64,000 nucleotides of DNA from a virus. The stretch is taken from the IMG/VR virus record IMGVR_UViG_3300010354_000002, positions 1 to 64,000 of that record; one strand, written 5' to 3'. Below the pieces are notes generated by a model that was not told where the DNA came from, searched no databases, and saw nothing but the letters and a program-made list of their open reading frames with translations. How positions within the stretch are numbered: the stretch's first letter is position 1; the number at the start of each line of letters is the position of its first letter. Below are positions 1 through 21,284 of this stretch, piece by piece. A program made the translations under genes and the position numbers.

Positions 1-174
1 CCAGAGTCTCTTGCGGAAAACGACACTTTGGACAAAGCAGTCCGAATCCATTCCAAACCGTTGGATGAAACCGATCCTGACAAAATTAACGCTGAGTTGT
101 CGGATCTGATCCATAACGATGCGTTTCAGCGTAGAATTTTGCGTGGACTTTTGGCGTCCGTTGCGAAGGATTGA
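1..174 (+). CDS. 3' end of an upstream head-region protein (partial)
   Basis: Frame 1 is open from the window edge to TGA at 172-174 (…LDKAVRIH…VAKD*), just before the next ATG. Confidence 0.6.
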   Translation, partial: PESLAENDTLDKAVRIHSKPLDETDPDKINAELSDLIHNDAFQRRILRGLLASVAKD

Positions 175-176
175 AA

Positions 177-3100
177 ATGGGTAACGACAAGACATTCAAG
201 CCTACTTCGTCAATGATTGCGGCAGCGAAGCGGGCTTTGGCATGGAAAGATCAAGGGCATCCCGGTGGTACGCGTATTGGATTGACTCGTGCTAATCAAA
301 TTGCTTCAGGTCGCCCATTGAGTCTCTCCACCGTGAAACGGATGCATTCATTCTTCAGTCGCCATGCTGTTGATCGCAAGGCTACGGGATTCAAAACCGG
401 TGAAGAAGGGTTCCCGTCGCCGGGGCGAGTGGCGTGGGATTTGTGGGGCGGGAATGCTGGTCGAACGTGGGCTGCTCGGATTAGTCAATCATCAGACATT
501 GTAAAAGCGGAAACCCCCGAGCCAATCGGAAATGTTCAGTTCGGCAAAGGTGGCAAACAGTTCGACCCATCAAAGGTTTTGCCGCGTGGAAATCCTGCGG
601 ATTATGCAGGAGTTACCCCCGGGCATCAAGGTTACTTCCCCCAACACTTGCCAGATAATGCTTCACAAGATAAATGGCATTCACGCCAACCCACTTCTGA
701 TCTGATCCGAGCAAGCGCACGCCTTGAAGACAGGGCACGATCAGAAGGCAAGGCGATGGAACTTATTACGCCTGAAAAATACCATAACCTATTGGCAAGC
801 CGTGGCGTTCATCCAGACGAGATGGCGTTGTTTGGTGTTCACAAGGAACAATCGGATTTCCACCCGTCCAAAGGTCGAACCGCCATAGGCTGGCATAACG
901 AGGTTCTCAACCGGGGTGTTGGGTATGCCACTCGTCAATTCCCACAAGATGGCCCGGTTAGTCTTGGTCACCTAAGCGTGAACACTATGCATAACGGCGA
1001 TCAAGTTCCGTATGGAGAAAGCCTGTTTTCAATTTCGGCACCACACCACACATTTTCCAATAACGTTTTCCCAAAGTCTTATCATCATATGTCTGGAAAT
1101 GGCATGCTCCTTTTCTGGCATAGGTTTGAAACATTGCCCGATCCCGAAAAACCAAACGGGAAAACCATCTTTACGCAAGAGGTGCAGTCCGATGCCAATC
1201 AAGGTTGGCGCAAGGAAGGCGATCCTCAGGCTTATGGTCGCCAATCATGGAATGAAAAAGATTATGCCCCTCTAACCGATGTGTTGTGGAGGAGTGATGA
1301 GGATGCGCAAAGGCGAGCCGGACATAAAGAGAATAATGGCGAAATAGCCCATCCCGAAACCTACAGCCCTAATCATGTTGTGCCGCCGTTTGGCGACAAT
1401 TGGGAGGAAGAGGCTGTCCCTTGGATGTTGCATGACGCCATTGTAAATCATGGTGCCAGTGGAATTATTCTGCCTCCTCACGATCCAGATGCTGGAATGA
1501 TTCACAACGGAGAAGTTGAGCAAGGTCCTGATGAACACATTGCGCGTCGGTATGGCAAGACTATTCCCGACATAATCAAGGCTATTCATGCCGCATGGGG
1601 TGGCGATCTTAAGGAACGCACGGTTTCTGACTTTGTAAGTAGTAAGAAGAAGTCAGTGCCGGAATATCGCAATCTGCTCCAACGACTGCCCGATGTATCC
1701 AATCTTGTTACATACAACATAGCCGACGAGGCGTCTGCGCATGCGGATAGCATTATTGGGGATGGTTCGGCGGAGCAAGTATACAGACTCTTGCGATTGC
1801 TAGGGCGTCGAAAAGATCTCGATCCAGACGAAATGCATCCTCAAGGGACTACAGATAACCCTCACGCCATAACGCCAAGTGCCTTTGATATGCAACGGTT
1901 GTTGCATCTACTTATGATGCGTTCAAGGGCAGAGTCACCGCAGACCGACAACCTTGAAATAAGAATGACCGATCCGAAATCAGGCGACAGGATAAATCAT
2001 GGGCCTTACAGGCTAACCTCTCCGCACTCACTCGGTCTTGAAGGTCGTGCGACTCGTCATAGGTTCAATGAAAACGAATTTTCTAGGTCATATACGAGAT
2101 GGCTGCCCAACAAAGACTTGGGTTTGGATGGACATGCCTATGATTTGAATTATCTCAACGATCATGCACGTGATCATAACTCAGTGCAACAATCCATGTA
2201 CAACATGGTATTGAACCATCTCGCCAACACCAAGGCGTTTGGGGGCAACAACGAAAACGTTGATCATATAGATGTGTCTGTAAAACCACATCGTATTGCA
2301 AGTGGCCTTGGCCTTCTTGACCTCAAAGATCAAAATGGGCATTCTTACAGGTTGGACCCAAGCATTCTGACCTACAAGCGCAGATATCAGGCATATGAAT
2401 TAGCAAATCTTTTGAGCCAACAATCTAGGGGCGATGCGGACATTCCAATGCAATTGGCATCTGATGCACGCCGCGTGTTTGGCAATTACAAGACGCGTTA
2501 CGATGACAAATACTCTCAAGATCATACTGGACTGCCCGTTTATCACTATCGTTTTCCGCAGGAGATGGTTGACTACTTCCAACAACACAAGTACTCGCCG
2601 TTCCGAGGCTTGAAACGGTTCCTCCGCGCCGGCGATCACCTGCGTAACGTAGTCAAGTCTGCAAAGCCGCGTCCCATAATTATTGCCATCAAGGCAACTC
2701 CTGCGGATGAAAATGTAACACCCGTTAAATTCGGGAAGGGAGGGAAGCCATTTGATCCATCACAAATTGTTCCAAAAGGTAATCCCAACGACTACGGAGG
2801 GCACACTTCTCCGTTCAGTTTGAGTGGTGATCCAAGGTCGGACTTGCTACGCGCGTCTCAACGTATTGTTGACCGTGCCAAACTGTCCGGTACGGAGCAC
2901 TCTCCACTCAATCCGTCTCAATACCATAATCTGTTGCTAAGTCGCGGTGTTGACCCATATGAGATAGCCCTCCATGGAGTACACAAGGATCAGCATCCGA
3001 CAGATTCGCTTCATACCCCAAGCGGTTGGAACGACATTGTAAAAAACAACGGTCTTCAATACATCACAAAAGTCCATTCAAGCAACAACAAATATGGCGA

Positions 3101-6100
3101 AGCGATTCCAAACGACAGCGCACAGCACGGCGCGGCTCGTAAGCCGCGCCTATTCCAATATAGTTTCACGACAAAAGTGCATCAAAAAACAATTCCCTAC
3201 TACGAAGATGTCCTTCAGTTTGGGACTACGCATCCCGGCAAAGAAATAAATCAGTCTCTATTTCCGCATTCCAGACATCATTACGGTGGCACGAACGATA
3301 GCCTGATGCTGACCCATGCCCGCTACGAGGTTATCCCGGACAGTAAGAACCCGGGCAAGAACATAGTTGTCATCCAAGAAGTTCAATCAGACCCAAATCA
3401 AAATTGGAGAAAATCCGCTAGCAAGTCGTCCGGTCGCCGTGCCGTCGAAACGGACTTTGCGCCTCCCGAAGATGTATTTCATCGCAATGGATACGAGAGG
3501 ATGACAATAGGAAAAGAGCGAATCGCAAATGGCGATGTGAAAGATCCTGCTAACTATAATTCGCAAGCGACTGTGCCGCCGTTTGGTGACCAATGGGAGG
3601 AAGAGGCTGTCCCGTGGATACTTCACAATGCGGTAGTGCGTCACAACGCCAGTGCGGTCATGTTCCCGCATCAAGATTGGCAGAATGGTCAGATCGGCAA
3701 CACTGACGATCATGTTGCTCGGCGTAATGGACAAACACTGCCGTCAATTGTCAATCAAATTCAAAAGGCTTGGGGAGGAAACGTTAGTCAAGAATCAATT
3801 GACGATCACCTTGACACTGAGTATGTGCCTAAAGAGTTATATGACTTACTGGAAGACGTGCGTTTTCAATGGCCAATTCATAAACTCCTGAAAACAGCCA
3901 ACATTGGCTTGCATAAAAAAATGCATGGCTCCACGTTGTCAAATTTGTCTGACAGCCGCGACGAATTGTTTAATTTCGTCACTGAAAATGCCAATATAGT
4001 CAACTCAAATGGCGAAATCACTTCGCGGAAACCCGTATTAACGGATCGTGTCATTGATAACATTACTCAGTGGTTAAATTCTCGGGACGACACCGAACGA
4101 AATGATTTGCAAATCAAATTCATTGATCCTGACAAAGGCCAAGTGTTTTCAGGATATATACCTGCCATTTTTGATTGGGGGGTCAGGTCAATAAAGGATC
4201 ACATCCGTAACGACGGTGCAGACAGTTATAGGGTTTTGCCGCATCCAACATCTGCACATAATGAAAAATCAGTGGTAGTGCCTGATGGCGATGTTGATGC
4301 AAATTATATTTATGACTATTATCCAGAACTTTTGTCATTTCACAACAGAATGGCAGATCAAATGACGCAACCTGTACAAGACAGATATAGTGCGCATATT
4401 CGTGACAGCAGCCCAATTAAACAACAAATGACAGATCCCAATGTCTTTCAAGACTCAGGTCAATATGACAAGTTGCTCAAACAACTACAAGACCTCATCG
4501 AAAACAATTCGTGGGAAATGCATACTTCTTCGCCATGGCTGGACAATTTCTTCAATACAAATCGGTTCGTAGACGCAAATGGCGAATTATTTACTATCGC
4601 AAGTCCAGTATACAAAGAAAAAATTTCGCCTACTGACATGCAGAGACGACTTTCTGATATGAATAACCCCGGTCAATTGTCAGGCCTTCCTGCGTTGGAA
4701 AGACTACAAGATATGAGGGATGATCTTCAAAAGAATGGTTTGCCTCAACAACCACATGCAACGATGCCTTTGGTCACATACCGCATTCCTGATGAGATGA
4801 GCGACTTTTTCCGTACGCATGGATATTCTCCATTTGGCGGTATCAAAAAGTTTTTGAATGCCTCTCCTAACCTGCAACGGCTGGTCAAGGGGTTGCATAA
4901 CAACGCCAAGGCCGTCGTCATTGTGAAAGCAAATCCAGAGAATGAACCGAATCAACCGTCGCAATTTGGCAAGGGCGGAAAGCCATTTGATCCATCCAAA
5001 ATCATTGCTCGCGGCGAACCGTCCGATTATCCGGGGAAAACAATAGATCCGTCTGCACACCACGATTTTCAATGGATGGGTTTCAGGCCGTTTAATCCCG
5101 ACAACTCACAACGTTTGAAGTCATCTTCTCATCATGTCAGCCTTCAAACGATACACAGGAGTGACCTATTGCGTGCCGTGGATCGCATTGCGAACCGTTC
5201 TATAAAGCAGGGGACTGCCAACAGTCTTATTACCGCAGACAAGTACCACGATCTATTGGCTAGCAGAGGCGTCCATCCTGAAGAAATGGCTCTGCACGGA
5301 GTTCACAAGGGGCAATCAAATATTCACCCCGCCGAAGGCAGGACGGCGATTGGCTGGGCGCAGCAAGCACGAAAAAGCCCAGTTTCGTATTTCAACATTG
5401 ACACGCATCAAATGCCCAACATTGCGTTTCACGATTCGTCGCCAGATACGCGTTACCGAGAAATCGTTTTTCACATGATGCCTATAGAACATTATACGTG
5501 GCCCACCGATTTGCATCAGTTTTCTACGTCTGGTGCGCATTACCGTTCATATGGTCAGGGATTGCCATTGCACCACGCTCGTCTTGAAGAAGAGCATTGG
5601 CCGGATCATGGAAAAACATGGGTCGTTCAGGAAATTCAGAATGACGTTGCGCAGAAATACATACGCAACGCCCAGAAAACAAAGGCAGAGGTTGATGGTG
5701 TTGTTTACGACAAAAACAATCCTCCAACGGTTAACCATGATGACTTTGCCCCATTGCATGACGTCGCTCATCAGACACCAGAGGAGGCTACAGAGCGAGC
5801 AAAACTAGGCAATAGGCTGATGCGGGGTAGACATGGCCAGTTGTCAGTAGTTCCGTTGTTGATGCCTCCAATGGCGGACACATGGGACACACATGAAGTG
5901 TTGCCATGGCTTGTTGCGTCTGCCATTGACTCTGGAGCGACCGGGATGACATTGCCCCATGAATCATGGGAAAACGGCCAGATCGTTGACAAATCTGCAA
6001 TCAAGCCTCATCTCAAGCGTCGTTACGGCACTACCTTGCCTGAATCGCTGAGGGAGTTGCACAAGCAATGGGGCGGCATATTGCAGACGTCGTCGCTCAA

Positions 6101-7067
6101 GGAGTTGAGCGGGAACCGCTATCCTGAGTCTAGACGTCGTGCTGAAGTAGAAGAGGCATTCAAAGAACTGGACAAAAACCCGATTGTTGGAGTGCTTGAA
6201 GAAGGTGGACGTAAACTTCACGAAAAGTTCAATGACAAGGACAACCTTAGGGGAAATGTCACCGTTCATAAACGGGTTGATGGCGATCTTGAACAACACC
6301 AGTTGGATTTGACAGACGACGAAGTTGATCAAGTGCATCGCGAATTGCAAAACGAGATTGGAGACGAGATCGGCCATCACAACTCAGGCTATGTTCGTGT
6401 TCTGATACCAAATAAGAACATTGAACTAAGCCGAATCTGGGGAGTACGTCCATACGGTTTGGCGGAAAACGACATTAGAGATCGCATCGCTAATCGGAGT
6501 CAAACCAAAGAGGAAACAGAACATGCGCATCGCATGTCCTTGCCCGAGCGTGCCACTGATTTGGCTCATGCATCTATGGATGCACATTACGGCGTACTGA
6601 ACAACTTGTCTGCGGAAATTGAGGATCACAACGACTGGAATCCCGACAATCAGATTGAAGATGATGATGACATGGTTTTTGAGTTTGGTTGGCCGCACCA
6701 GTTAGAGTCAACATGGATTTCTCCAATAAAGTCAAGAACACTTCTAGAAATCAACCGCGCCCCATATTCAGTGCAGGTAAAGCGGAAAGTTGGCGACATA
6801 TGGAATGCCAGACCTAGTACGAATGCACGTCAGGATGCCTATTCTTTGATGCTGAGACTTCAGAACAAAGAGCATCCTTACCGTGAGTCTCCAGTTATGT
6901 ATTGGAAGTTCCCACCGGAACTGATAGATCATGTAACCAAACATGGCTACGCCCCATGGTCTGGAGCGCGATTTGGCAGGGCATTTGACCACTTGCGGAA
7001 CGTCGTAAAATCCGTTGGCAAACAGTCGGTTGTGATCATGGCGGGAAGTAGTGGTAGACGAAAATGA
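177..7067 (+). CDS. Giant head-associated polyprotein: N-terminal conserved phage domain plus three tandem QSD-domain modules
   Basis: About 2296 aa; AAGGA RBS before ATG 177. N-terminal RANQIA…TVKRMHSFFSRH…GRVAWDLWGG motif typical of phage head-region proteins. Three repeats each begin FGKGGK[QP]FDPS and contain QE[VI]Q[SN]D. Confidence 0.85.
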   Translation: MGNDKTFKPTSSMIAAAKRALAWKDQGHPGGTRIGLTRANQIASGRPLSLSTVKRMHSFFSRHAVDRKATGFKTGEEGFPSPGRVAWDLWGGNAGRTWAARISQSSDIVKAETPEPIGNVQFGKGGKQFDPSKVLPRGNPADYAGVTPGHQGYFPQHLPDNASQDKWHSRQPTSDLIRASARLEDRARSEGKAMELITPEKYHNLLASRGVHPDEMALFGVHKEQSDFHPSKGRTAIGWHNEVLNRGVGYATRQFPQDGPVSLGHLSVNTMHNGDQVPYGESLFSISAPHHTFSNNVFPKSYHHMSGNGMLLFWHRFETLPDPEKPNGKTIFTQEVQSDANQGWRKEGDPQAYGRQSWNEKDYAPLTDVLWRSDEDAQRRAGHKENNGEIAHPETYSPNHVVPPFGDNWEEEAVPWMLHDAIVNHGASGIILPPHDPDAGMIHNGEVEQGPDEHIARRYGKTIPDIIKAIHAAWGGDLKERTVSDFVSSKKKSVPEYRNLLQRLPDVSNLVTYNIADEASAHADSIIGDGSAEQVYRLLRLLGRRKDLDPDEMHPQGTTDNPHAITPSAFDMQRLLHLLMMRSRAESPQTDNLEIRMTDPKSGDRINHGPYRLTSPHSLGLEGRATRHRFNENEFSRSYTRWLPNKDLGLDGHAYDLNYLNDHARDHNSVQQSMYNMVLNHLANTKAFGGNNENVDHIDVSVKPHRIASGLGLLDLKDQNGHSYRLDPSILTYKRRYQAYELANLLSQQSRGDADIPMQLASDARRVFGNYKTRYDDKYSQDHTGLPVYHYRFPQEMVDYFQQHKYSPFRGLKRFLRAGDHLRNVVKSAKPRPIIIAIKATPADENVTPVKFGKGGKPFDPSQIVPKGNPNDYGGHTSPFSLSGDPRSDLLRASQRIVDRAKLSGTEHSPLNPSQYHNLLLSRGVDPYEIALHGVHKDQHPTDSLHTPSGWNDIVKNNGLQYITKVHSSNNKYGEAIPNDSAQHGAARKPRLFQYSFTTKVHQKTIPYYEDVLQFGTTHPGKEINQSLFPHSRHHYGGTNDSLMLTHARYEVIPDSKNPGKNIVVIQEVQSDPNQNWRKSASKSSGRRAVETDFAPPEDVFHRNGYERMTIGKERIANGDVKDPANYNSQATVPPFGDQWEEEAVPWILHNAVVRHNASAVMFPHQDWQNGQIGNTDDHVARRNGQTLPSIVNQIQKAWGGNVSQESIDDHLDTEYVPKELYDLLEDVRFQWPIHKLLKTANIGLHKKMHGSTLSNLSDSRDELFNFVTENANIVNSNGEITSRKPVLTDRVIDNITQWLNSRDDTERNDLQIKFIDPDKGQVFSGYIPAIFDWGVRSIKDHIRNDGADSYRVLPHPTSAHNEKSVVVPDGDVDANYIYDYYPELLSFHNRMADQMTQPVQDRYSAHIRDSSPIKQQMTDPNVFQDSGQYDKLLKQLQDLIENNSWEMHTSSPWLDNFFNTNRFVDANGELFTIASPVYKEKISPTDMQRRLSDMNNPGQLSGLPALERLQDMRDDLQKNGLPQQPHATMPLVTYRIPDEMSDFFRTHGYSPFGGIKKFLNASPNLQRLVKGLHNNAKAVVIVKANPENEPNQPSQFGKGGKPFDPSKIIARGEPSDYPGKTIDPSAHHDFQWMGFRPFNPDNSQRLKSSSHHVSLQTIHRSDLLRAVDRIANRSIKQGTANSLITADKYHDLLASRGVHPEEMALHGVHKGQSNIHPAEGRTAIGWAQQARKSPVSYFNIDTHQMPNIAFHDSSPDTRYREIVFHMMPIEHYTWPTDLHQFSTSGAHYRSYGQGLPLHHARLEEEHWPDHGKTWVVQEIQNDVAQKYIRNAQKTKAEVDGVVYDKNNPPTVNHDDFAPLHDVAHQTPEEATERAKLGNRLMRGRHGQLSVVPLLMPPMADTWDTHEVLPWLVASAIDSGATGMTLPHESWENGQIVDKSAIKPHLKRRYGTTLPESLRELHKQWGGILQTSSLKELSGNRYPESRRRAEVEEAFKELDKNPIVGVLEEGGRKLHEKFNDKDNLRGNVTVHKRVDGDLEQHQLDLTDDEVDQVHRELQNEIGDEIGHHNSGYVRVLIPNKNIELSRIWGVRPYGLAENDIRDRIANRSQTKEETEHAHRMSLPERATDLAHASMDAHYGVLNNLSAEIEDHNDWNPDNQIEDDDDMVFEFGWPHQLESTWISPIKSRTLLEINRAPYSVQVKRKVGDIWNARPSTNARQDAYSLMLRLQNKEHPYRESPVMYWKFPPELIDHVTKHGYAPWSGARFGRAFDHLRNVVKSVGKQSVVIMAGSSGRRK

Positions 7068-9871
7068 GTCAGGATGCAATCAGGGTCAACGCAAGCGCGT
7101 GTTGCAAGTTCTTTGACTATGAGGACGCGCTCGTTCAGATGATTTCCAAAAGTGTCAATGAGGGCGTGGACCCTATTGGCTCTCGCATTGACCCTGACAC
7201 AGGTATTCGCTACGCTGCGTACGAACCCGCAAAGTGGAAAGATGTCTCGTCTAAGACAGGACGATCACGGCTTGCTGACAACAAGGCATTCAAGCAAAAA
7301 TTTGGCAAGTTGATTGATCTCTCCAAGGGCGACCCCATTGGGGTTCGGCTCAACATCAACTTCCTAAACAATTTCGGTGTTCCAGTCCAATCTGTGCATC
7401 AAGCCAAGACGGCCAATCCATGGTCCGAGCCAGTTGTTGCGTATTCCCATGCAGTAACTGTTCGTAATCCAGAGTTTCAAGTGCATCAGAAAGGCGTGTA
7501 TGAAATAGCGAATCGCATAAAATCTAAATATCCAATGGCGGCAGTTGTTGGTGAATATGTGCCTACGCCTCCAGACATGCATCGCGTGGAAGGCGAAATC
7601 GTTTCCTTCAACCCAATGCGTTCGCACCTATTCACTACTGTTGTCAATGACAGGCATGTACCGGTCAAATCTGTGCGCGGCACAGTCACGATCCATGGCA
7701 CACGAGTTTATGTACACCCGGGTAGCACAGTTGAATATTGGGGAGATGATGCGCCCGAACCGTATCGCCCAGTTGTCAAGGCAGTAGAGAATGCCAATGA
7801 ACAGGCGGGAAACGCAATAAAATTTGGCAAAGGGGGCAAACCCTTTGACCCATCGCAGATTGTGCCACGTGGCAACCCCTTGAATTATCCCGGCAGAACG
7901 TCCTACCCGTCTAGAGGAGTCGCCGCTGGATCGAGTCTATTATCCACACACCGATCCGATCTACTACGTGCGGCAGGGAGACTTAGTAGTCTAGCCGATA
8001 TAAAGGGCACCACTCACGAACTCATAACGCCTCACAAATATTTCAATCTTTTGACCAGCCGGGGCGTTCACCCAGACGAAGCCGCCATTTTTGGCGTTCA
8101 CAAAGGACAAGCCAACTTGCATCCCGCCGAAGGCATGACGGCCAAGGACTGGGAGAAATCCGTATATGACAGGGGAATCAGTTATGCTACGTCTGAATAT
8201 ACTGGCGACGACATCCAACTTCCCGGCATGCATTTTAAAACCATGGACACTTCGTTGCGTCCTGAATACAAAGAATGGTCCAAGACACTTGGATCAAACA
8301 AATACGCAAGCAATTTAAAAGCAGAAGGCATTCTGTCTGCGGCAAATTTAGCCCATTTTCCACATCCCACAGTGGGAATGTCGTTGCAACACGCTCGTTT
8401 TACAGATGAAACATGGCCTGAAAAGGGTCGCACGTTAGTCCTTCAAGAGGCGCAAAACGACGTTGCGCAAAAATGGAAAAAAACCGCAAGCCGTATCAAA
8501 GAGGCTACGTCTGGGGTTCGGGATGCAAAAGCCACCGAAGCCGACTTGTTGCCATTGCATGACGTACTATGGCAACCCGGAAGTCATTTTATGAATTTGG
8601 GGGGCCTTCAACGCACCCTTAGCGGCATGCCGGTAGTAGTGCCTCCAATGGCAGAGTCAAATGGAGGCTGGGACTATGCAGAATTTATGCCTTGGCTAGT
8701 GTCCACGGCAATTGAGCATGGTTATAAAGGTGTCACATTGCCGCATCCTAAATGGATGAATGGATACGTTGAGGATCGTCCCGAGCAACATGTCAGCCGT
8801 AGAGCCGAGCGTCTTGCCGAGGCTATGCAAGCAATGCATCAGGCATGGGGAGGGGAACTGACAAAGGATTCATTGGAGAACCTAAGTGGTCGCCCTGCGC
8901 TTACGGGTGATTTGAACGGTTACTACAACGCTATGCGCGAACGTCCAATCTTAAGTTGGCTTGGGGATGCATCAAAGGAAATCCATCAGAAAGCGAATGA
9001 CCAAGAATGGGTTTCGTCTCAGTTGAAAAAGTCAAGGCCCGATGATGCTTCTGGAGAGTTGGATGATCGCGTCTGGTCTGATTGGCAAAAAAACGTCCTC
9101 AACAAACCGATTAGTTTCAACCTTGCTATTGAGTTGCCCACGAAAACAGGTCAAATAGCAAAACCCATATCATTGAGCACAGACCAATGGGGCAATATAA
9201 TATCGTGGCATGACGACCAATTTAGTTTGCCGATAAATCCAAGTGGACGCCTTGCAGATCCATTGGGGCCGTTTGAAGGGCATGTATACGGTCCGGGCGA
9301 AAATATGAGCGTGGGGCAGATTGAGAGTTGGAACGACAAATTTGAAAGACTTCAAATCGCTGTACATAAGGCGATTGCCAGACATAACAATGAAGCATTT
9401 CAGAATCCATCTTCTGACAATGTGCCGTTGTCACCTGAAGATCATGTGACTCTTCAATTGCATATGGCTGAACCGTTCGTAAGTCAGGACAAGGGCGATC
9501 TTGTCGTGGGGCCGTTGGTGCCTTTTGCCTCAACCAAAGTCAAAGTTTCAGATTTGGCAAACCTTAATCCAACTCCCTACCCGGATCTGATGAAGCGCAA
9601 TAACCCATTAGTCGAACCTATCAGTTGGAAGGATGTTGGCTGGAGAACCATGCCTGTGTGGCACTGGCAATTCCCTCAAGAATTGATTGATCATGTTATG
9701 ACGCACGGCTACGCGCCATTCCGCGGCTTGGAAAAGTTCAATCGCGCCAACGAGCATCTGCGCAATGTAACGAAGGCAGTTCGACAAAACACTTCAAGGA
9801 TGCGCCGCAGGCCGGTGATCATACACTGGAACAGCCCTGTACAATCGTCATACGCATCCCGCTCCCGATGA
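7064..9871 (+). CDS. Two-module head-associated protein: unknown N-terminal domain plus a fourth QSD module
   Basis: 935 aa; ATGA overlap with the previous gene. KFGKGGKPFDPS, SRGVHPDE, HARF, QEAQND and HGYAPF motifs are shared with the 177 protein. Confidence 0.85.
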   Translation: MSQDAIRVNASACCKFFDYEDALVQMISKSVNEGVDPIGSRIDPDTGIRYAAYEPAKWKDVSSKTGRSRLADNKAFKQKFGKLIDLSKGDPIGVRLNINFLNNFGVPVQSVHQAKTANPWSEPVVAYSHAVTVRNPEFQVHQKGVYEIANRIKSKYPMAAVVGEYVPTPPDMHRVEGEIVSFNPMRSHLFTTVVNDRHVPVKSVRGTVTIHGTRVYVHPGSTVEYWGDDAPEPYRPVVKAVENANEQAGNAIKFGKGGKPFDPSQIVPRGNPLNYPGRTSYPSRGVAAGSSLLSTHRSDLLRAAGRLSSLADIKGTTHELITPHKYFNLLTSRGVHPDEAAIFGVHKGQANLHPAEGMTAKDWEKSVYDRGISYATSEYTGDDIQLPGMHFKTMDTSLRPEYKEWSKTLGSNKYASNLKAEGILSAANLAHFPHPTVGMSLQHARFTDETWPEKGRTLVLQEAQNDVAQKWKKTASRIKEATSGVRDAKATEADLLPLHDVLWQPGSHFMNLGGLQRTLSGMPVVVPPMAESNGGWDYAEFMPWLVSTAIEHGYKGVTLPHPKWMNGYVEDRPEQHVSRRAERLAEAMQAMHQAWGGELTKDSLENLSGRPALTGDLNGYYNAMRERPILSWLGDASKEIHQKANDQEWVSSQLKKSRPDDASGELDDRVWSDWQKNVLNKPISFNLAIELPTKTGQIAKPISLSTDQWGNIISWHDDQFSLPINPSGRLADPLGPFEGHVYGPGENMSVGQIESWNDKFERLQIAVHKAIARHNNEAFQNPSSDNVPLSPEDHVTLQLHMAEPFVSQDKGDLVVGPLVPFASTKVKVSDLANLNPTPYPDLMKRNNPLVEPISWKDVGWRTMPVWHWQFPQELIDHVMTHGYAPFRGLEKFNRANEHLRNVTKAVRQNTSRMRRRPVIIHWNSPVQSSYASRSR

Positions 9872-11124
9872 TAGACTCTGACAAACGGAACTCAGGTGAC
9901 ATGATGGAAAACATTCCAACGCAAATTTCTCCGATGCATCTCGGGGAACTGTCTCGGCTTACAAAAATCCCGCTGTGGAATCCAGACGATCCGCTTTATT
10001 CCGTGCAGGATTCCACATTGATGAACAACCCTTGGCTGCGGGATTCCACGAGGATTCACATTCCTCTCGGCTCTCTATTCGCCGAAAAAGCCATTTCGGT
10101 GCCATCCTTTGCTCCGTCTATCCCAGAGTCTAATATTGACCCGGTAGGCCGCGTGGGTAGTCAGCCGTCTACGGCTCGTGTTAAGACCGGCACAACCCCC
10201 GGCGGGTTGTCTGCCGCACTGGAAGACCCAGACAAAGTTGCAATGGCAAACCATCTTCTAGCGGCGTTGGAGGTTGATCCTCGCACGCAGAGCAGCGCAT
10301 TGTTGCACCGTGCTGGCATTGGCCCTCACCGCATTCGATTCCGCCCGAAATTTGGCGGTTGGGAGGAGGAAGGCAGGCCGCATGTTGACCCGTACCTTGC
10401 GGTTGACGTTCCTTCGGACAGACAAGGCAATCCCGAAGACCATATCATTCAACGTCTGCGGCATATCTTTGGCCAGACTGCTGTTGGAACTGAAAAAGCC
10501 ACGCATGCCGCAGGCAATCCGAATGCAATTGGTATTCGTGGTGATTTTGACAGGCCGTTTAGCGAGCGAGAGGCTCTGGAATTGACGCAAAAAATGGTGC
10601 AGGGCGGTGGTGGTTTTGCGCCGGACGTGTATCCCGGTGACAGTCATGCCCGGTCAATTTTGTATCCATCTTCAAGCCACCCCAGCAATCCAACACTGTC
10701 GGAAGCCACGGGTGGCGATCAAGGTTATCGTGGTGGAGTAATCCCATATCATCATATGGCGTCCATTCAACAGGCCGCCGATGCGGCCGACAGGGTTCTC
10801 CGTGACCATGGGGCACGCAACACTCGTATTTTCGGCCTGAAGACGGGATATTTCGATCCCGAGATCGCACCGGACATCATGGGACATCCCGGTGTACAGG
10901 AAGCAGTTGAACGACTGGCTGCAATTCGTCAGGGACGATACGGCCTTGCGAAGGGCGTGGAAGATGCACCGGAATCCGAGGATGACATGAATGCAAAAGT
11001 CGCCAAGGTGATGCAAGAATTCAAGGATGGGACATTGAAAACCAGTTCTGGCGAGACTGTTACAGACCGAGATCAGGCAATTGCGATTGCCTTGTCCGAG
11101 GCTGGTAACTCCCGCAAGGGGTAA
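9868..11124 (+). CDS. Head-associated protein with C-terminal DUF6496-like domain
   Basis: C-terminus KVAKVMQEFKDGTLKTSSGETVTDRDQAIAIALSEAG, preceded by LAKG. Start could be 9901. Confidence 0.7.
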   Translation: MIDSDKRNSGDMMENIPTQISPMHLGELSRLTKIPLWNPDDPLYSVQDSTLMNNPWLRDSTRIHIPLGSLFAEKAISVPSFAPSIPESNIDPVGRVGSQPSTARVKTGTTPGGLSAALEDPDKVAMANHLLAALEVDPRTQSSALLHRAGIGPHRIRFRPKFGGWEEEGRPHVDPYLAVDVPSDRQGNPEDHIIQRLRHIFGQTAVGTEKATHAAGNPNAIGIRGDFDRPFSEREALELTQKMVQGGGGFAPDVYPGDSHARSILYPSSSHPSNPTLSEATGGDQGYRGGVIPYHHMASIQQAADAADRVLRDHGARNTRIFGLKTGYFDPEIAPDIMGHPGVQEAVERLAAIRQGRYGLAKGVEDAPESEDDMNAKVAKVMQEFKDGTLKTSSGETVTDRDQAIAIALSEAGNSRKG

Positions 11125-11126
11125 TC

Positions 11127-11771
11127 ATGTATTCCGTATTCGTTCGGACGGGGAGGGTTGGCAATCAACCCTCCCTTCAATATGGAAGGCCAGTCTATGG
11201 CGACGCCAAGCGACCTGCCGATGTAAGGTGGCTCGGGGTCAATGACCATGACTGTGCTATGTCTATCAAACGGACTCTAGAGCGAGTGGGCGACATGATT
11301 CGCAATGTGGATCATTCATTGTTCGTAGAACTGTTGCGTTGGGCATTGTTGGATTCCAAAGAGATTGGGGTATCCGAGAATGTTGGCCATGCAGTAGCAA
11401 AGCAGATATGGGACGAGTGGACGAAGTCCAAGCGGAATCGCATTGCCCACAAGGCCGACTCATTCACTGACGAACAACGGCTGGAACTTGCCATGGCATA
11501 TGTACACGGTCGCGCTGGAGCATTTCAGTTGCAACCTGTGCACATACCGCACAACAAGATTTTGACTCTTGCGACTCCAATCGGAGTTTTATATAAGAAC
11601 AACAGAGAGTCAAATGTTGCAGATTTGCAAAAAAACTTGACGCCGGAAGGGATCAAGGTTGTCAGGTTGACTATAGGTAAGCATCAAGTTGAACAGCCTG
11701 ACTTGGCTGGCGATCAGAGATTTGCGGTCATCAACCCGACTGCGGGGAAAAAAAACCATGCGACGTACTAA
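11127..11771 (+). CDS. Hypothetical protein
   Basis: 214 aa, closely packed in the operon; AAGGGG RBS. Confidence 0.7.
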   Translation: MYSVFVRTGRVGNQPSLQYGRPVYGDAKRPADVRWLGVNDHDCAMSIKRTLERVGDMIRNVDHSLFVELLRWALLDSKEIGVSENVGHAVAKQIWDEWTKSKRNRIAHKADSFTDEQRLELAMAYVHGRAGAFQLQPVHIPHNKILTLATPIGVLYKNNRESNVADLQKNLTPEGIKVVRLTIGKHQVEQPDLAGDQRFAVINPTAGKKNHATY

Positions 11772-13785
11772 AAAGCGTCTGCTGATCATCACAAAATCCC
11801 ACACGAATCCTGTGATGCATGAGCCGAAAGAAGGGCCGATTTCTGGTCTCGGTTCTCTGGAAGTCTTGCTGGCGTCTACCGTTCCAGACAACGAAAGGCA
11901 TGCCTCGCATCCGGTCATTGCCAAGGGAATACGCGTTGCGCCGATAGTCAAATCTGTCATTGGGGACAATCCTGACAATGGTGGACGTTATTTTGGTGCG
12001 CCACAACATGCATCTCCTCCAAGATATGGCGATCTGGATCGCGAAGCATCAATGCACCTCGCACCGCCATCGCATATGTCATCAAATTTGATGCGTTTTG
12101 TTCACTCATACATTAATAACTTTGTGCAGGAACAGCCGGGTAAAAAGATAACGCCATCCGATGTGTTGAAGAAGGTTTCGGAGTCCAAACTGTTTTCCAC
12201 TCCTGAAATCAAAACCGTTCTTGGCCATCATGGTTTTTCAGCCGAAAAGCCTGTTCATCCACAAGAATTCCTGACGCATATTGACGAAGGCAGGTTTGAC
12301 GGAGAAAATCCCCATCCTGAAAAAATACATCTTGAAACACGCATGATCCCCGGTCGTACAGATCGCTCGGGTCATTGGTACAACGACCGATTCAAGGATT
12401 TGCGCCCATGGTCGGAGCATGATCATCTGGAATTGGTAAATGGTGCAACTGGCAATATCTATCGCCCATATGTAGAAGACTCATACCGGGTCCATCTGTT
12501 GAGCGCGCCACACATAGGTCCCGAAGAATCACATTTTCCATTTGGCTCCTATGCCAACATGCCTCCCGGAACGCACAAAAACGGCGGTGTTGCGCATGCT
12601 CGCGGCTACGATGTAGAGGATGAGAATGGCAAAGTCTACAGTGTAACGTCTGAGCATCAATCTGATGTTTTGCAAGCAGGGCGGGGAAACACAAGATTCA
12701 AGACTCGTCCCAAAAAAGATCCCAGTGGCAATGTCATTGCTGGATCGGAGGAGGTCGTAACCGATCACTGGGGGTCGCCTCAGGTTGTATCCATTCCGCA
12801 AGAGACAGCCATAGGCGGAACTGATGATTGGCACAAAGCCATGCTCAATGCCACCATTGCCCATGCTCTGGAAACCGGCAAGGATGGCATCGAGTTTGGC
12901 GATCCGTCCATGATGAACGGTATGTGGGTTAGGCCGGATCATAGATCCGAAGCCATGAACGTGCATTACGACAGCAAGGCACGGAAGCATCTTGAGCAGT
13001 TTGCAAAACAATTCGGTGCGTCGGTTGAATATGTTCCCTATATGCTGAATTACCATGAGGCCGACAAGGCATTGGGCGAGGGACGCCAGTCGGTGACAGA
13101 CGAGGCTGCATATAGGCGTCAAGGTACTACTGATCGGTTTCGCAATACGCTGAAATTGCTTGCCGCACGTCAAAAATTGCCAAATGTTGACCCCAACAAC
13201 GTCTTTGGGATGAATGTACATTCTTTGGTTGACAGCCTAACCGAGTCCCGTGCACCGGGGCGAAACAGGACGCATCTTTTTACTCCCGAGCAATTAGCGC
13301 AACAGGCCAATGAAAACGGAGTTACCAATGTAAATGGTCAACCTATGAAGCCGGAGGACGTTATGACTGCTGTGGATTTCTGGCAGGTACTACATCAGAT
13401 GTATCACGATCATTCGCGAATGTATGATCGTGATAGCCAACCAGATCCACGGCTGGAACTCCTGAAAGAAAAAAACCCCGATGCCTACGAGGCCGTGAAA
13501 TCATGGCCGAAAGACAGGCCGGTAATCGTTCGCCCACGGCTTACATTTACTCCCGAAATGAAGGCGTTTCATCAGAAACAGGGGGTTGGGTTATGGGGCG
13601 TCAGCGGACCTGAAATGAACAACAAGATTGAAAATGCCATATCTAACTCGCCAGACAAGAAAAAAGATGGAAAGCAACCAACCCCTGAGGAATGGGTGAC
13701 GATACGTCAGAAAGCATCCTCGATGGGTGTTGATGTCAATACATTGTTGCGCCAAGGCATCTTGCGGGAATTGCGTGGCTTGTAG
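11758..13785 (+). CDS. Head-associated protein with a divergent QSD domain (fifth copy)
   Basis: HF…AHARG…SEHQSD…W…AHALETGKDGI…HYD motifs; N-terminal ITKS, IAKG and IVKS motifs. Confidence 0.8.
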   Translation: MRRTKKRLLIITKSHTNPVMHEPKEGPISGLGSLEVLLASTVPDNERHASHPVIAKGIRVAPIVKSVIGDNPDNGGRYFGAPQHASPPRYGDLDREASMHLAPPSHMSSNLMRFVHSYINNFVQEQPGKKITPSDVLKKVSESKLFSTPEIKTVLGHHGFSAEKPVHPQEFLTHIDEGRFDGENPHPEKIHLETRMIPGRTDRSGHWYNDRFKDLRPWSEHDHLELVNGATGNIYRPYVEDSYRVHLLSAPHIGPEESHFPFGSYANMPPGTHKNGGVAHARGYDVEDENGKVYSVTSEHQSDVLQAGRGNTRFKTRPKKDPSGNVIAGSEEVVTDHWGSPQVVSIPQETAIGGTDDWHKAMLNATIAHALETGKDGIEFGDPSMMNGMWVRPDHRSEAMNVHYDSKARKHLEQFAKQFGASVEYVPYMLNYHEADKALGEGRQSVTDEAAYRRQGTTDRFRNTLKLLAARQKLPNVDPNNVFGMNVHSLVDSLTESRAPGRNRTHLFTPEQLAQQANENGVTNVNGQPMKPEDVMTAVDFWQVLHQMYHDHSRMYDRDSQPDPRLELLKEKNPDAYEAVKSWPKDRPVIVRPRLTFTPEMKAFHQKQGVGLWGVSGPEMNNKIENAISNSPDKKKDGKQPTPEEWVTIRQKASSMGVDVNTLLRQGILRELRGL

Positions 13786-13797
13786 AATGGTAGTGTC

Positions 13798-16700
13798 ATG
13801 CCCAATCCATCCGCAATAAATGCCCATAGGCAGTGGTGGCGACAAAATCGTCCTGCGCGTGTTGCCCGCGAAGAGTTCGTACCAATCATCATCCGACACG
13901 GCAAGGATGATGAGATTGGCAGTTTGGCATATGCCGCTCGTATCCACGGGCCACAGGATCAAATTGCGCGTGCGTTTGCCAGTGCAGGCACAGTGGAGAA
14001 AGCGATCTCGGACGGTCGTTGGATTACCCTCCATCCAAATGGCAAAGACGAAGCAGGACATCCTGTTTTGATCAAGGACAACCCAGACGGTACGGCCACC
14101 ATTGTTGGTGGAATTGGTGGGAAACTCAATGGGTTTCGCATGTCTCTGGTGCGATCCGAAGATGATTACAAGGCCGAGATTGCCAGCCGTGGGAAAGAAG
14201 AGCGCGCTCGCCTGAAAGCCGAAAAGGAGGCCATCATTGCCGCCCAAGGCGCGGAGGAATACAACCGCCATCAAGAGGAATTGGCCTTTGACAAGGAGCA
14301 ACGAAAGGCTAAAAAACTAGAAGCCGCAGAGCATCTGGCGCGAACCGTACTGACGGCGCAAGGCATCAATGCAGACTCTGTTCTGGAAGTCCCTGACGAG
14401 GTTATGGCGGCCGCCAAGAGTCCCAAACAGGCCGAGCGAATCAAGGAGGCGCATGTGCTTGGTGTCGCCAAGCATGCTCGCCAAGTAGCCCAAGAGGTAC
14501 GTCAGAGGGTAGTCACAGCACTTGAGGCCCAGCAGCCCGTCGAAGGCGTCGCATTTGCGGATATCGTGCGAGAGGCATTGTCTGGGAAGACGCCGGGATA
14601 TGCAGTGAATCCTGAACGCATTGCGGTATCCCGAGGAATTGCGCCAAGCCCCGAATCAATCGGTGATATCCGTGAACAAAGTTTCCTGCTACGCGCAGAC
14701 AATGACGAGGCACTTGCGGCGCAACGCATGGCCAGCGTTGCCAAATTGCAGGCCGGGGCGGCTTCTGCTAGGGCCGCAATAAAAGATGCGCTAGAGGCGT
14801 CTGCTGTCCACGGAGCGGGGCCGCACGCCCTCGGTGGCATGAATGCCAAGCCGGTGGACGTGGAGAATGCTGGTGCCATTCTTGCGGCTGCAAATGCCTA
14901 CCGCGAGGCGAGCAGATCCAAGCCGCCTGCTGGCATGCGCTCCGTTGCGCCAGTGACGTTCCATCCAGATCACGAAGGCGAGGATATTCCAGTCCAGTCG
15001 CTAATGGATGAATTGCGAACCCGGGCAGTTTCCAAACTTGTTGACATAAGCAACAAAGAGGAAGCAGCAGGGAACTCGTTATATTCGCACATCTCATCCG
15101 GGCGGTATGCAGAACTAGCCGGAATCACCGGACAGTTGCTTCCGGGCGCAACAGTTGACCCTGCCTTGGTGGACTTCCTCGGGTCGGAAGGTGCATCGCA
15201 TCTTGTGGCACTAGCGGCCTTGGAAACCGTGGGGCAGGAAGGTCTCGCAAAATACCGGGACGGCCTTGTGCAGAGTCATCTGGATAGGCAAGTCGCACAA
15301 TGCGACAAGGCTGTAGATGATGCCAGTGTCCTGATGAACAGGGCTGGTGCTCCGCTGTCGTTCGATGCGGACAATGCGCAGTCCATGATTGCTACGTGGG
15401 GTGCGATTGCCGAACGCAACCAACTGCTTTCAACTGCGCGTGAGCATCTCGGCAAAGCCCGGGGACGTCTGGAGGCTACGGCGTCTGCCATCAAGGCAAT
15501 TGATGGAGTATTGATTAATCCCGACAGGGGGCTGTCGGTCACCGTGCCGGGGTCATACAAGCAAGTTGCAACCATGGCGGCCGTCATGTTGCCGGGGTTG
15601 GAATTGGGGCGAGACTATACTCTGGTCTCCCCCGAATCCAATCTTATGGCGTTGGATATCACCGCAGATGGCGTCCGTAAACTGGCGTCGTCATCTGGCC
15701 TTTCAATCTCCGACGATGTGGCGAAGAGGCTTGAAGTTGTGCGTCAATCCGCAAATACGAGTGGCAAACTGCCACTTGGCCTTCGCAGGGAGATTGATGC
15801 GAAAGGCCCCGTGCACGGAGCCGCGACAACGGAATATGGCGAGTTGTCCGATAAAGAGCACGCCATGATTCGATCCTATTGGTGCGAAAGCCAAGGCATT
15901 GAAGCGGCGCAGGAATGCGATCCGTTTGGAGTACTGAAGCCAGATCAGGAACCAGTGTGGCGTCGTTATCAGGATGCTGTGAACAACGGCAATGAAGTTG
16001 AGATGATGCAGTCTGATTTGGCTGGGCGTTTTGACGCCCTTTCCAAGTTGGACTTGGATGACAACAAGGCGGTGATCGGATTCGGCAGCCGTATGGCTGA
16101 CATCTTGGGTCTGGATGTGGTTGCCGATGCGAATGGCAATCCTATCTCCATTCCGCAATTGGATGCACGCAAGACCGAGTACAACAAAGCCAGATTCATG
16201 CGTCCGCGCATCATCAAGTTTATGCGCACCTTTTGGGCCGCGACCCAAGGGGCAGACTATTTCGACCCGGCAAACATCAAGCCTGTGTCGAAGGCTTGGG
16301 CGTCGTTTGTCCAGCGTAGCGGTGGCGATATGGCCGCTGTAGCCAGCGTGCAAGATCAAATGAAGCAAGACCCGGATGTCATGGTCATGCAAGGCAAACC
16401 ACTTCGCCTTACCGATGGCCAAGAGCGCATGATCGGGATGATCATTGGAAACCGCAGGATGGCGGCTGGCCTTGGCGCAGGTGCTGGCAAAACCTTGGTT
16501 ATGATGGGGTCGTTTGCCCAATTGCGAAACGATGGGCAAGCGCAACGAGCATTGATCGCTGTCCCATCTGCTGTGGTCGGTCAGTTTGAATCCGAGTGGA
16601 ACAAGTTCGTAGATCCGCAATATGGCATGACCATGCATGCGGCTACCGGTAACGCCGCTAAGACGTCCGAGGCGATGGGCGGGGCGGCTGATTTTGTGGT

Positions 16701-19446: not shown

Positions 19447-19516
19447 CTTAGTTTCTCCTTGATGTGGGCATTCTGCCCTACGCAGGTAGAGTACAACATC
19501 AGTTCTGTGTTGTCAA
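19447..19516 (-). promoter_or_regulatory. Early promoter/hairpin/RBS cassette
   Basis: TTGACA-17-TACTCT, then hairpin GGGCAGAATGCCC, then AAGGAG. Confidence 0.8.
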
Positions 19517-19652
19517 CACCAAGCACACAAAAATTCCAAGTTTTTTTGGCATCCCCGCTACCGTCCGAAATGTGATAAAAAAGCGTTGTCATTGCCGCCC
19601 TGATGTTCCTGAGGGAGTGTCGGGTGGCTTTTTGTCGTTTGGGGATAACGCT

Positions 19653-20612
19653 ATGGCGCAAATGTTGCCGTTTGAAACAACCATTGCCATCAAGGCCATG
19701 CCCGATGATTACAACGGGTCGTGGGTTATTGACGGCCCTGTAGGGTCGGACGAAAAAGACTACGATGGCGAGACCATGGAACCGCACGGCGTGTGGAAGG
19801 GCATGGACATGTTTGACCTGCTTGGTCGGCATGTGGACTACGAGCACCAGTATCGAAAAAGCCTGAACCCTCGCTTTCTGATCGGAGTCGGTGTTGATCG
19901 GCGTCTTGAAAAGGGCGTCTGCCACCTTCGGGCCGAACTCTACAAGGACAAGGAACTGGCAAAGTCCTTGTGGGAGCACTTGAACACCAAGACGGCTGCT
20001 GGCGAAAATGGCTACGCTGGCTACAGCATCGAAGGCCGTGTGCTGGAGCGAGACCCGAAAGATCGCAACATCATCAAGAATGTTGAGGTCCACCGTGTCA
20101 CTGTGTCCATGTCTCCCAAGGGTTTCGGCAAGACTCGTGTCCTGCCCGTGCAATCGGTAATCAAGGCTGCTCTGGACGAGGATGGAGTCAAGAGCATTGC
20201 CCCGGAATCGTGGGTTGGCGAGGACGCATGGGATGCGTTCCATGCGGTTCTGACATCCGAGGAGATTCCGCTTCCCCGATATTCCCAGATCGGTACGATC
20301 ATCAAGGCGTACATGACTGGGTCCGAGATTGTCGCACCGGGTGCTGGAGACATCGCCCCGTTGCGTCAGCAGTCACTGATTGGTCCTCCGGTGGTCCAGA
20401 AAGCCTCGGAGGCGACCAAGAAGCCGTCGCGCCCCACAGCGCGGCAGACGAAGCCGACGTCGTCAAAACCCCGCCCGACGACGTCTACGGTGCGCAAGGC
20501 CGACGAAACCGAAAAGGCCGTTGCGTGCTGGGGTGACTGGCTTGCCAGTCGCGGCATGGACACACGACTCGCTCGCGTGATCCACAAAAAACTGGAGAAG
20601 ACCTATGCCTAA
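19653..20612 (+). CDS. Prohead protease
   Basis: EKDYDGE, VDYEH and GYSIEG motifs; lies directly upstream of scaffold and capsid genes. Confidence 0.8.
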   Translation: MAQMLPFETTIAIKAMPDDYNGSWVIDGPVGSDEKDYDGETMEPHGVWKGMDMFDLLGRHVDYEHQYRKSLNPRFLIGVGVDRRLEKGVCHLRAELYKDKELAKSLWEHLNTKTAAGENGYAGYSIEGRVLERDPKDRNIIKNVEVHRVTVSMSPKGFGKTRVLPVQSVIKAALDEDGVKSIAPESWVGEDAWDAFHAVLTSEEIPLPRYSQIGTIIKAYMTGSEIVAPGAGDIAPLRQQSLIGPPVVQKASEATKKPSRPTARQTKPTSSKPRPTTSTVRKADETEKAVACWGDWLASRGMDTRLARVIHKKLEKTYA

Positions 20613-21273: not shown

Positions 21274-21284
21274 GGTAAATAGAC

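Follow-up and report, generated by a model that had tools for sequence, protein, structure and literature searches.

Seven diverged copies of an unnamed module with a predicted GNAT-like fold in candidate polyvalent proteins of an IMG/VR virus

Alt of phage T4 is an ADP-ribosyltransferase carried by the virion: it is packed in the head, injected, and modifies host proteins. A wider class, the phage-type polyvalent proteins, was described by Iyer, Burroughs, Anand, de Souza and Aravind (2017, J Bacteriol, PMC5512222). That article presents them as giant multi-module proteins encoded among virion genes, with domain repeats within the chain and predicted delivery with the DNA. We describe a repeated module in a setting of this kind in the first 64 kb of IMG/VR virus record IMGVR_UViG_3300010354_000002 (this whole stretch of 64,000 nucleotides is called the window). 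The record comes from an uncultured virus, is 83,161 bp long, has direct terminal repeats and is rated 100% complete. The module, here called the QSD(W) module, was found in seven copies, M1 to M7. The polyprotein of the window is not a mixture of different domains; it consists almost entirely of this one module. In the reading that we favor, at a probability of about 0.5, the module is an enzyme or ligand binder of GNAT-like fold that is targeted by its inserts and delivered by the virion.

The genome was scanned in six frames with a hidden Markov model (HMM) built only from outside material: 143 proteins of other origin contributed 194 segments, and the profile used to gather them left out M5. 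Exactly seven copies were detected, in five open reading frames (ORFs) of the 83,161-bp genome, and nothing else at E<=1. The features were as follows, with E values from this outside-only HMM unless a family is named (aa, amino acids; a slash marks a module boundary).

177 to 7067, plus strand: gene of a 2296-aa polyprotein, leader plus M1 to M3 (ORF 171 to 7067, ATG at 177)
201 to 482, plus strand: leader domain, aa 11-104 (phrog_2859, E 1.5e-30)
510 to 2696, plus strand: module M1, aa 114-842 (domain E 5e-79; bounds IVKA/E and IAIKA/T)
2697 to 4931, plus strand: module M2, aa 843-1587 (domain E 2.7e-76; boundary VIVKA/N)
4932 to 7064, plus strand: module M3, aa 1588-2298 (domain E 2.1e-79)
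7064 to 9871, plus strand: gene of a 935-aa protein, a 240-aa N-terminal part plus M4, overlapping the preceding polyprotein gene
7784 to 9868, plus strand: module M4, aa 241-935 (E 4.1e-75; VVKA/V before the start)
11758 to 13785, plus strand: module M5, divergent single copy, 675 aa from the ATG at 11758 (E 1e-16)
51024 to 52304, plus strand: module M6, short form of 426 aa, no insert; the copy used for the structure model
52297 to 53574, plus strand: module M7, short form of 425 aa, 43% identical to M6
1179 to 1193, plus strand: ExQSD motif of M1
3378 to 3392, 5631 to 5645, 8447 to 8461, 12652 to 12666, 51699 to 51713 and 52930 to 52944: ExQSD motifs of the other six copies

The modules of the polyprotein were 711-745 aa long each, and the database copy of this protein (P0008) was the translation of the ORF from the ATG at 177. 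Of the genome, 17% was taken up by the five module genes and 16% by the modules themselves. The sequence FGKGGK was present at aa 124, 854 and 1599 of the polyprotein (nucleotides 540, 2730 and 4965) and at aa 254 of the 935-aa protein. An earlier note on this DNA had placed three copies in 177-7067, starting near these same nucleotides, one copy in 7064-9871, and single copies at 11758, 51024 and 52297. The profile scans agreed with this layout, so that its observation was confirmed; its interpretation was supported in part, as described below.

Pairwise BLASTP matched M1-M4 to each other at E 1e-46 to 7e-90, with 26-38% identity. M6 matched M7 at E 3e-115, and M2 matched M6 and M7 at 3e-7 and 1e-6, respectively. 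M5 gave no significant pairwise BLASTP match to the other modules (best E 0.19). An HMM made from M1-M4 and M6/M7 scored M5 at E 0.0033 and 13.0 bits, whereas none of 2000 shuffled decoys scored above 5.5 bits. Aligning the modules and building an HMM had been proposed as a check, and the profiles recovered all seven copies. With the outside-only HMM, the E values were 3e-80 to 3e-75 for M1-M4, 4e-64 for M6, 5e-59 for M7 and 1e-16 for M5, and the best of 2000 shuffled decoys reached 0.045.

The alignment contained the motifs SDL[LI]RA, SRGV[HD]PxE, H[AR]R, QExQ[SN]D, PP[FM]..W and, toward the C-terminus, [YF]xxPxE..Y[SA]P[FW]xG. The core match of M5 covered approximately 12247-13029, with AHAR, SEHQSD and TFTPEM aligned to these motifs. 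The string of motifs listed in the earlier note was thus visible, except that M6 and M7 deviated from it: in both, the E of 'ExQSD' is replaced by Q and the R of 'HxR' by K. Judged by these sequence comparisons, the seven modules are paralogues and belong to a very large family that has no name.

The size of the family was estimated by a HMMER search of 1.84 billion cluster representatives with a nine-sequence profile. At E<=1e-3 it found 5165 representatives, of which 512 also reached E<=1e-10. Most were giants, the longest of about 8000 aa, and many had two to four domain matches spaced about 550-600 residues apart. A scan of IMG/VR confirmed at least 567 module loci (567 of 600 candidate stretches). 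In the 80 loci that were kept, 80 ORFs bore the domain, 61 with a single, 14 with a double and five with a triple match. With a 412-aa member as query, 1944 matches at E<=1e-5 were obtained, in proteins 226-721 aa long. The module is therefore not private to this phage, and its seven copies are a lineage-specific expansion within a very large family. The word-index searches returned two relatives besides the query for P0004 and no relative for the M4 core (P0002); the wider family came to light only in the full profile search.

The family consensus in its first half was Y..PGG.NYRE.LLTLP, followed by HWDEPNvLAHvRfnDR..G.K.LF.EEIQSDWHQ.GR..GY and a variable stretch. The second half was VPDAPFK..W..LALKR....AAENGYD.IAWT.G..QA.RYDL, then GGEGMK.FYD.ILP....K.GKK.G, then ITP.MR.....G.PLF. 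The window modules formed a divergent branch of the family.

The statement that the family could not be named was upheld, since no Pfam, NCBIfam or functionally annotated PHROG model covered the module. On the five window proteins, Pfam gave no match on the module, including at E<=0.1, and no named polyvalent domain. No Pfam model, LPD models included, lay over the module in the window proteins or in any scanned homologue, and nine of 10 homologues searched separately had no Pfam match. NCBIfam matched none of eight proteins. In the five window proteins, PHROG matches were confined to the leader (phrog_2859) and to the N-terminal region of the 935-aa protein (phrog_586). Among the 120 matches listed for the 412-aa member, 119 had no Pfam domain on record and one had InPase, and the source names were 'hypothetical protein' or none. 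The best scores in the ESM Atlas were 0.84, below lead level, and all were 'hypothetical'. The literature search found no paper on a QSDW module; the supplementary domain lists of PMC5512222 may name it without a Pfam model.

Several candidate assignments were rejected. The weak Pfam matches on P0002 (Phage_L5_gp82 below its cut-off, Orthoreo_P17 and DUF3405) were unrelated to the module. FAD-SLDH overlapped the QSD motif in P0123 (aa 66-141) with 24.3 bits against a cut-off of 24.2 and was taken as chance. The only PHROG to touch the module was the giant 'endolysin' phrog_7348, of which P0069 matched positions 1813-1955. We read this entry as a polyvalent protein that also holds a lysin, and not as assigning an endolysin function to the module. 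A PD-(D/E)xK-like nuclease motif, as a reading of 'ExQ/QSD', was dropped after the fold searches.

Two AlphaFold2 models were made, both of M6. The first had a predicted local distance difference test score (pLDDT) of 53.7, and the second, with 86 sequences, of 70.8. The top-50 VIA-align lists of both models consisted essentially of GNAT-fold proteins. The best structural rows were the C-terminal domain of Mycobacterium tuberculosis ICL2 (6edw), Rv1916 (8g8k), and Naa and RimI enzymes, together with the tRNA-acetylating toxins TacT2, TacT3 and AtaT.

GNATs have the order beta1-alpha1-alpha2-beta2-beta3-beta4-alpha3-beta5-alpha4-beta6-beta7, with a splay between beta4 and beta5. The M6 model began with a strand (128-134), a helix, three strands (173-179, 206-214 and 220-228), a helix (230-237) and a disordered insertion. 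It continued with a helix (284-300), a strand (304-306), a hairpin, a helix (332-352), two strands (359-366 and 374-381) and two helices. In the model this order matched beta1 to beta4, alpha3, beta5, alpha4, beta6 and beta7. The core is thus predicted to adopt a GNAT-like (acyl-CoA N-acyltransferase) fold with a helical N-terminal subdomain ahead of it, and the earlier guess of such a fold was borne out on the predicted structure of M6. Unlike GNATs, the module has this extra N-terminal subdomain, the two C-terminal helices and a large variable insertion between beta4 and alpha3; M1-M4 have a second insertion between beta6 and beta7. The two GNAT families named by Iyer et al. (PMC5512222) as occurring in polyvalent proteins are RimI-like, and by sequence the module stands apart from them. 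It had no sequence similarity to any Protein Data Bank (PDB) chain, which by that test argues against its being one of the RimI-like families.

Conservation was read column by column across 86 sequences, whose columns averaged 11% identity. Q228, W285 and A297 were 100% conserved. H194 and D230 (99%), S229, Q233 and P276 (98%), and H207, R209 and E226 (95%) were near-invariant, and Y338, R213, R236, K278, K291 and K351 were conserved at 80-92%. All seven window modules kept Q228, D230, Q233, W285 and A297.

The model places H207 and R209 on the strand equated with beta3, E226 and Q228 at the end of beta4, and S229 to Q233 directly after it. P276 and F277 are likewise placed before alpha3, W285 at its start, and Y338 and D339 within alpha4. 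In GNATs, the donor cleft is built by beta4, beta5, the start of alpha3, and alpha4. The conserved residues would lie on these same elements and probably cluster in one cleft, a pattern that fits an active or ligand site.

The long modules M1-M4 each carried an insert, as follows.

1611 to 2537, plus strand: insert I1 of M1, 309 aa, between predicted beta6 and beta7
3786 to 4769, plus strand: insert I2 of M2, 328 aa
6084 to 6893, plus strand: insert I3 of M3, 270 aa
8861 to 9655, plus strand: insert I4 of M4, 265 aa

When M1-M4 were aligned to M6, the inserts sat after 'WGG.L....' (beta6 of M6) and before 'h.Y.F P.E' (beta7). No similarity was detected among I1-I4 (best BLAST E 0.031), and leave-one-out HMMs of the inserts did not score above 1000 shuffles. 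The earlier claim of unrelated inserts of about 300 aa therefore stood for M1-M4 (265-328 aa) and not for M6 and M7, which at about 425 aa have none. In N-terminal and lysine acetyltransferases, the acceptor site is bordered by the beta6-beta7 loop. From this analogy, the inserts may be read as target-recognition parts; 'one activity with different specificities', as the earlier note put it, remains an inference.

The homologues linked the module to known polyvalent proteins. Among 24 giant homologues scanned whole, ART-PolyVal was found in five, InPase in four and LPD22 in two; a 2',5'-RNA-ligase-like (2H) domain, RadC, RelA/SpoT, Acb1, PARP and DUF3990 occurred in one each. The presence of ART-PolyVal, InPase or LPD22 marks these homologues as phage-type polyvalent proteins. 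Two further IMG/VR ORFs of about 4000 aa had LPD38, ART-PolyVal or SNF2 alongside the module. According to Iyer et al. (2017, PMC5512222), InPase, 2H, RelA/SpoT and LPD38 are confined to phage-type polyvalent proteins.

A plasmid case was p382 of Pseudomonas aeruginosa (NZ_CP115292.1, locus 1-13884). Its 5000-aa 'LPD23 domain-containing protein', a protein of P. aeruginosa megaplasmids, carries one QSD(W) module in a Pfam-free region, together with 12 ART-PolyVal stretches, DUF3990 and LPD23, the last about 1100 residues from the module. A relative of this protein is given as the extreme case of repeated ART domains by Iyer et al. (2017, PMC5512222).

Within the window, several independent domains lay on one polypeptide in the 2296-aa protein (leader plus three modules) and in the 935-aa protein. 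The architectural links were those of the homologues (ART-PolyVal, InPase, LPD22 and LPD38), as the five window proteins carried none of these domains. The module genes were encoded with virion or late genes, in the block between the portal gene and the genes of the protease and the major head protein. The sequence evidence places the QSD(W) module among the building blocks of phage-type polyvalent proteins. T4 Alt and ART-PolyVal provide a model for how it would act, that of a head-packed enzyme that is injected and modifies host proteins. ART-PolyVal was also the most frequent partner of the module; its fold and chemistry are unrelated, and no ART domain was found in the window.

The head genes that frame the modules were located as follows.

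77538 to 79418: portal gene, reached across the contig ends
19464 to 20612, plus strand: head maturation protease
21285 to 22922, plus strand: major head protein
19464 to 22922, plus strand: head protease, scaffold-like ORF and major head protein (phrog_1028, phrog_752)

Reading across the contig ends, the stretch 177-17904 was flanked by the portal and protease genes. The interval between portal and protease is the usual place for large head-associated proteins. The module genes in this head block were on the same strand as the head genes, with overlapping stops and starts. Those of M6 and M7 overlapped the stops and starts of their neighbors, which encode a 1573-aa protein on one side and a 994-aa 'tail protein' on the other. 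This suggested that they are at least co-transcribed with virion genes.

Similar surroundings were found in other phages. In the cultured, T7-like Pelagibacter phage HTVC028P (MW273921.1, locus 7204-10068), the module is carried by gp34, a 'hypothetical' protein of 954 aa whose gene is flanked by those of 'internal protein A' and an 'internal virion protein'. Pseudoalteromonas phage PH1 carries it in a 1299-aa protein encoded beside TerL, and Dolichospermum phage Dfl-JY45 is a further cultured carrier. The module thus resembles the internal virion proteins of T7-like podoviruses in its place in HTVC028P, and differs from them in having no similarity to solved internal core proteins in searches of PDB sequences. 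In the present phage, which encodes a neck/tail-completion protein (phrog_26), the module genes are found in the head block and beside tail genes. Given this gene context and the polyvalent homologues, packaging in the capsid and injection as an effector are plausible. As a separate observation, gp37 of HTVC028P, three genes upstream of gp34, is a canonical 'putative acetyltransferase'.

The leader of the polyprotein (about 100 aa, aa 11-104) shared 72-76% identity with the N-terminal regions of P0007, P0009 and P0012, three proteins from other sources; the modules that follow it there, of either type, were far more diverged. A packaging or anchoring signal would be expected to show this combination of a conserved head piece and fast-changing cargo, and the leader is a candidate for such a domain. 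Against PDB sequences, at a threshold of 1, its only match had an E of 0.33.

Each long module was preceded, 10-16 residues ahead of FGKGGK, by a motif of two hydrophobic residues, K, and A or S (h-h-K-A/S): IVKA/E, IAIKA/T, VIVKA/N and VVKA/V. The positions of this motif were 500-512, 2682-2696, 4917-4931, 7772-7783 and 11944-11955, the last being the M5 version, IVKS/V. The head protease had TIAIKA/M at aa 75-81 (19686-19706), and the scaffold-like ORF had LVKA/V near 20929-20940. The motif may be a cleavage site of the prohead protease, which we treat only as a lead.

The relationships of the copies were examined in a midpoint-rooted tree of 19 rows, in which M5 and one module of P0011 were on long branches. 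The long-module clade contained M1-M4, M5 and modules of P0009, P0011 and P0012. The short-module clade contained M6, M7, P0006, P0007, both copies of P0010 and the third module of P0009, a protein with two long modules and one short. M1-M4 formed one clade (support 92/99) with the pairs M1+M2 and M3+M4, and the two P0010 copies were sisters (100/99). This suggested that tandem duplication happened repeatedly within lineages. Repeated duplication of this kind is common in conflict genes.

In the reading that we favor, the module would act as an enzyme of the transferase type or, failing that, would at least bind a ligand; we name neither donor nor acceptor. The unrelated inserts between beta6 and beta7 would give each long copy a different target. 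The proteins would be synthesized late and incorporated into the virion, the polyprotein would be cleaved into single modules, and these would be delivered into the host with the DNA. The co-oriented packing with virion genes, the conserved leader and the h-h-K-A/S motif in the protease make such a path from late synthesis to delivery likely.

Several results weigh against this reading. The fold of M1-M5 rests on their homology to the modeled M6, and no sequence method linked the module to GNATs. PF00583 had no match in the genome, although 14 of 14 control genomes matched. Two profiles (A1 and A3) searched against all PDB sequences gave nothing, or one xylanase at E 1.1. Comparison by hhalign with one phage GNAT, the HTVC028P acetyltransferase, gave a probability of 0.05. 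Foldseek searches of PDB with both models returned no match at E<=1e-3; the best was 0.077, and the top row was a protein of unknown function. GNAT motif A is Q/RxxGxG/A at the beta4-alpha3 junction. This coenzyme A (CoA) loop was not recognizable in any copy when the alignments were read by eye; what follows beta4 is QSDWHQ.GR..GY, a variable insertion, and PF...W before alpha3. The near-invariant S229 was N in M3 and M4, and Q replaced E226 and K replaced R209 in M6 and M7. The h-h-K-A/S motif is short and common, with 16 matches in 17 proteins, and it is part of the repeated unit, so that its occurrences are only a lead and not four independent events.

Alternatively, the modules might have no catalytic role and belong to the proteins of the virion or of ejection, for example those of the internal core, pilot proteins or proteins associated with the DNA. 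In that case, the GNAT-like fold would be a mere scaffold, the conserved residues would bind DNA, each other or capsid parts, and the tandem copies would give length or multivalency. The two to four copies per polypeptide in many homologues speak for this and fit a structural role as well as the enzymatic one, to the detriment of the latter. So do the share of about 16% of the genome, the place of HTVC028P gp34 within an internal-virion-protein block, the position of M6 and M7 between the fibre-like 1573-aa protein and the 'tail protein', the many conserved K and R residues, and the lack of a recognizable CoA motif. On the other hand, a compact, near-invariant polar motif (Q228, D230, S229, Q233 and H194) at a mean identity of 11% is typical of active or ligand sites, and the partner domains of the module are enzymes. 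Enzyme domains also repeat, as in the 12 ART-PolyVal stretches of the P. aeruginosa plasmid protein (compare Iyer et al. 2017). We consider a purely structural role rather unlikely, if well worth keeping in view. The GNAT resemblance might also be a coincidence of modeling or alignment, and the module an enzyme of another kind, for example one acting on nucleotides or nucleic acids. The fold would then be no guide to function; we think this decidedly unlikely.

A different view of the substitutions is that only some copies are functional. The array would then be made up of duplicates in decay: M5, the pair M3/M4 with its S-to-N change and the pair M6/M7 with its E-to-Q and R-to-K changes would be inactive, surviving as relics or as regulators. 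Near-invariant columns were indeed substituted in four of the seven modules, and the branch of M5 was long (3.32). Yet all seven reading frames were intact, at 425-745 codons each, and all seven modules kept the five residues named above. The substitutions were conservative and common to sister copies and relatives in other phages: the M6/M7 states at E226 and R209 recurred in P0006 and P0007 from other sources, which argues for subfamily traits rather than decay. Decay is the least probable of these explanations, and we regard it as very unlikely. The preferred reading, of a GNAT-like enzyme or ligand binder delivered by the virion, can also be taken much further. The QSD(W) family would then be an undescribed and very abundant superfamily of GNAT-fold transferases that serves virion-delivered phage proteins in particular, with a single chemistry provided by the conserved cleft and retargeted to different host molecules by hypervariable beta4-alpha3 and, here, beta6-beta7 insertions. 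This phage would carry a protease-released panel of seven effectors for host takeover or counter-defence. So extended, the proposal is speculative and unlikely to hold in full.

Polyvalent phage proteins are a recognized and almost untested class, and few of their building blocks are as common as the QSD(W) module, which has no name in Pfam, NCBIfam or the source annotation. If it is an enzyme, it would represent a major unexplored activity brought into cells by phages; if it is structural, it would still mark a widespread virion component. This genome stands out by the seven-fold expansion, by a polyprotein made almost wholly of the module, by inserts at a single loop that are unrelated to each other, and by two compact copies that stand alone. 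The seven diverged copies, including the two stand-alone forms of about 425 aa, offer a convenient entry for expression, structure determination and mutagenesis.

Other genes of the record included the following, together with a C5 DNA methyltransferase gene on the minus strand of the genome.

66087 to 68192: TerL-like gene, in the whole record
13798 to 17904, plus strand: 1368-aa protein with a C-terminal SNF2-type helicase (PF00271, PF00176; phrog_62, E 2.5e-76)

The SNF2 protein had no methyltransferase domain, and its first approximately 830 residues had no family match. Searches of 50,697 phage records with the head region (megablast) and with P0004 (tblastn) gave no match.

In the gap between M4 and M5, a 214-aa ORF (11127-11771) matched no family, and a 418-aa ORF (9868-11124) ended in a DUF6496 motif (E 3.6e-8). 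The 1573-aa and 994-aa neighbors of M6 and M7 matched nothing among PDB sequences at a threshold of 0.01, and the 1573-aa protein (46312-51033), directly upstream of M6, had no Pfam, PHROG or PDB match. Its N-terminal third is rich in Ser, Thr and Ala and contains repeated G(T/V)RLQNA(T/E)AD-like units; by appearance, it looks like a fibre or receptor-binding protein. In the N-terminal part of the 935-aa protein, window positions 7418-7660 (aa 119-199) gave a weak match to PF25735 (26.4 bits against a cut-off of 27). This family, Phage_L5_gp82, is named for gp82 of Mycobacterium phage L5, and the same N-terminal part matched phrog_586 at E 7e-6.

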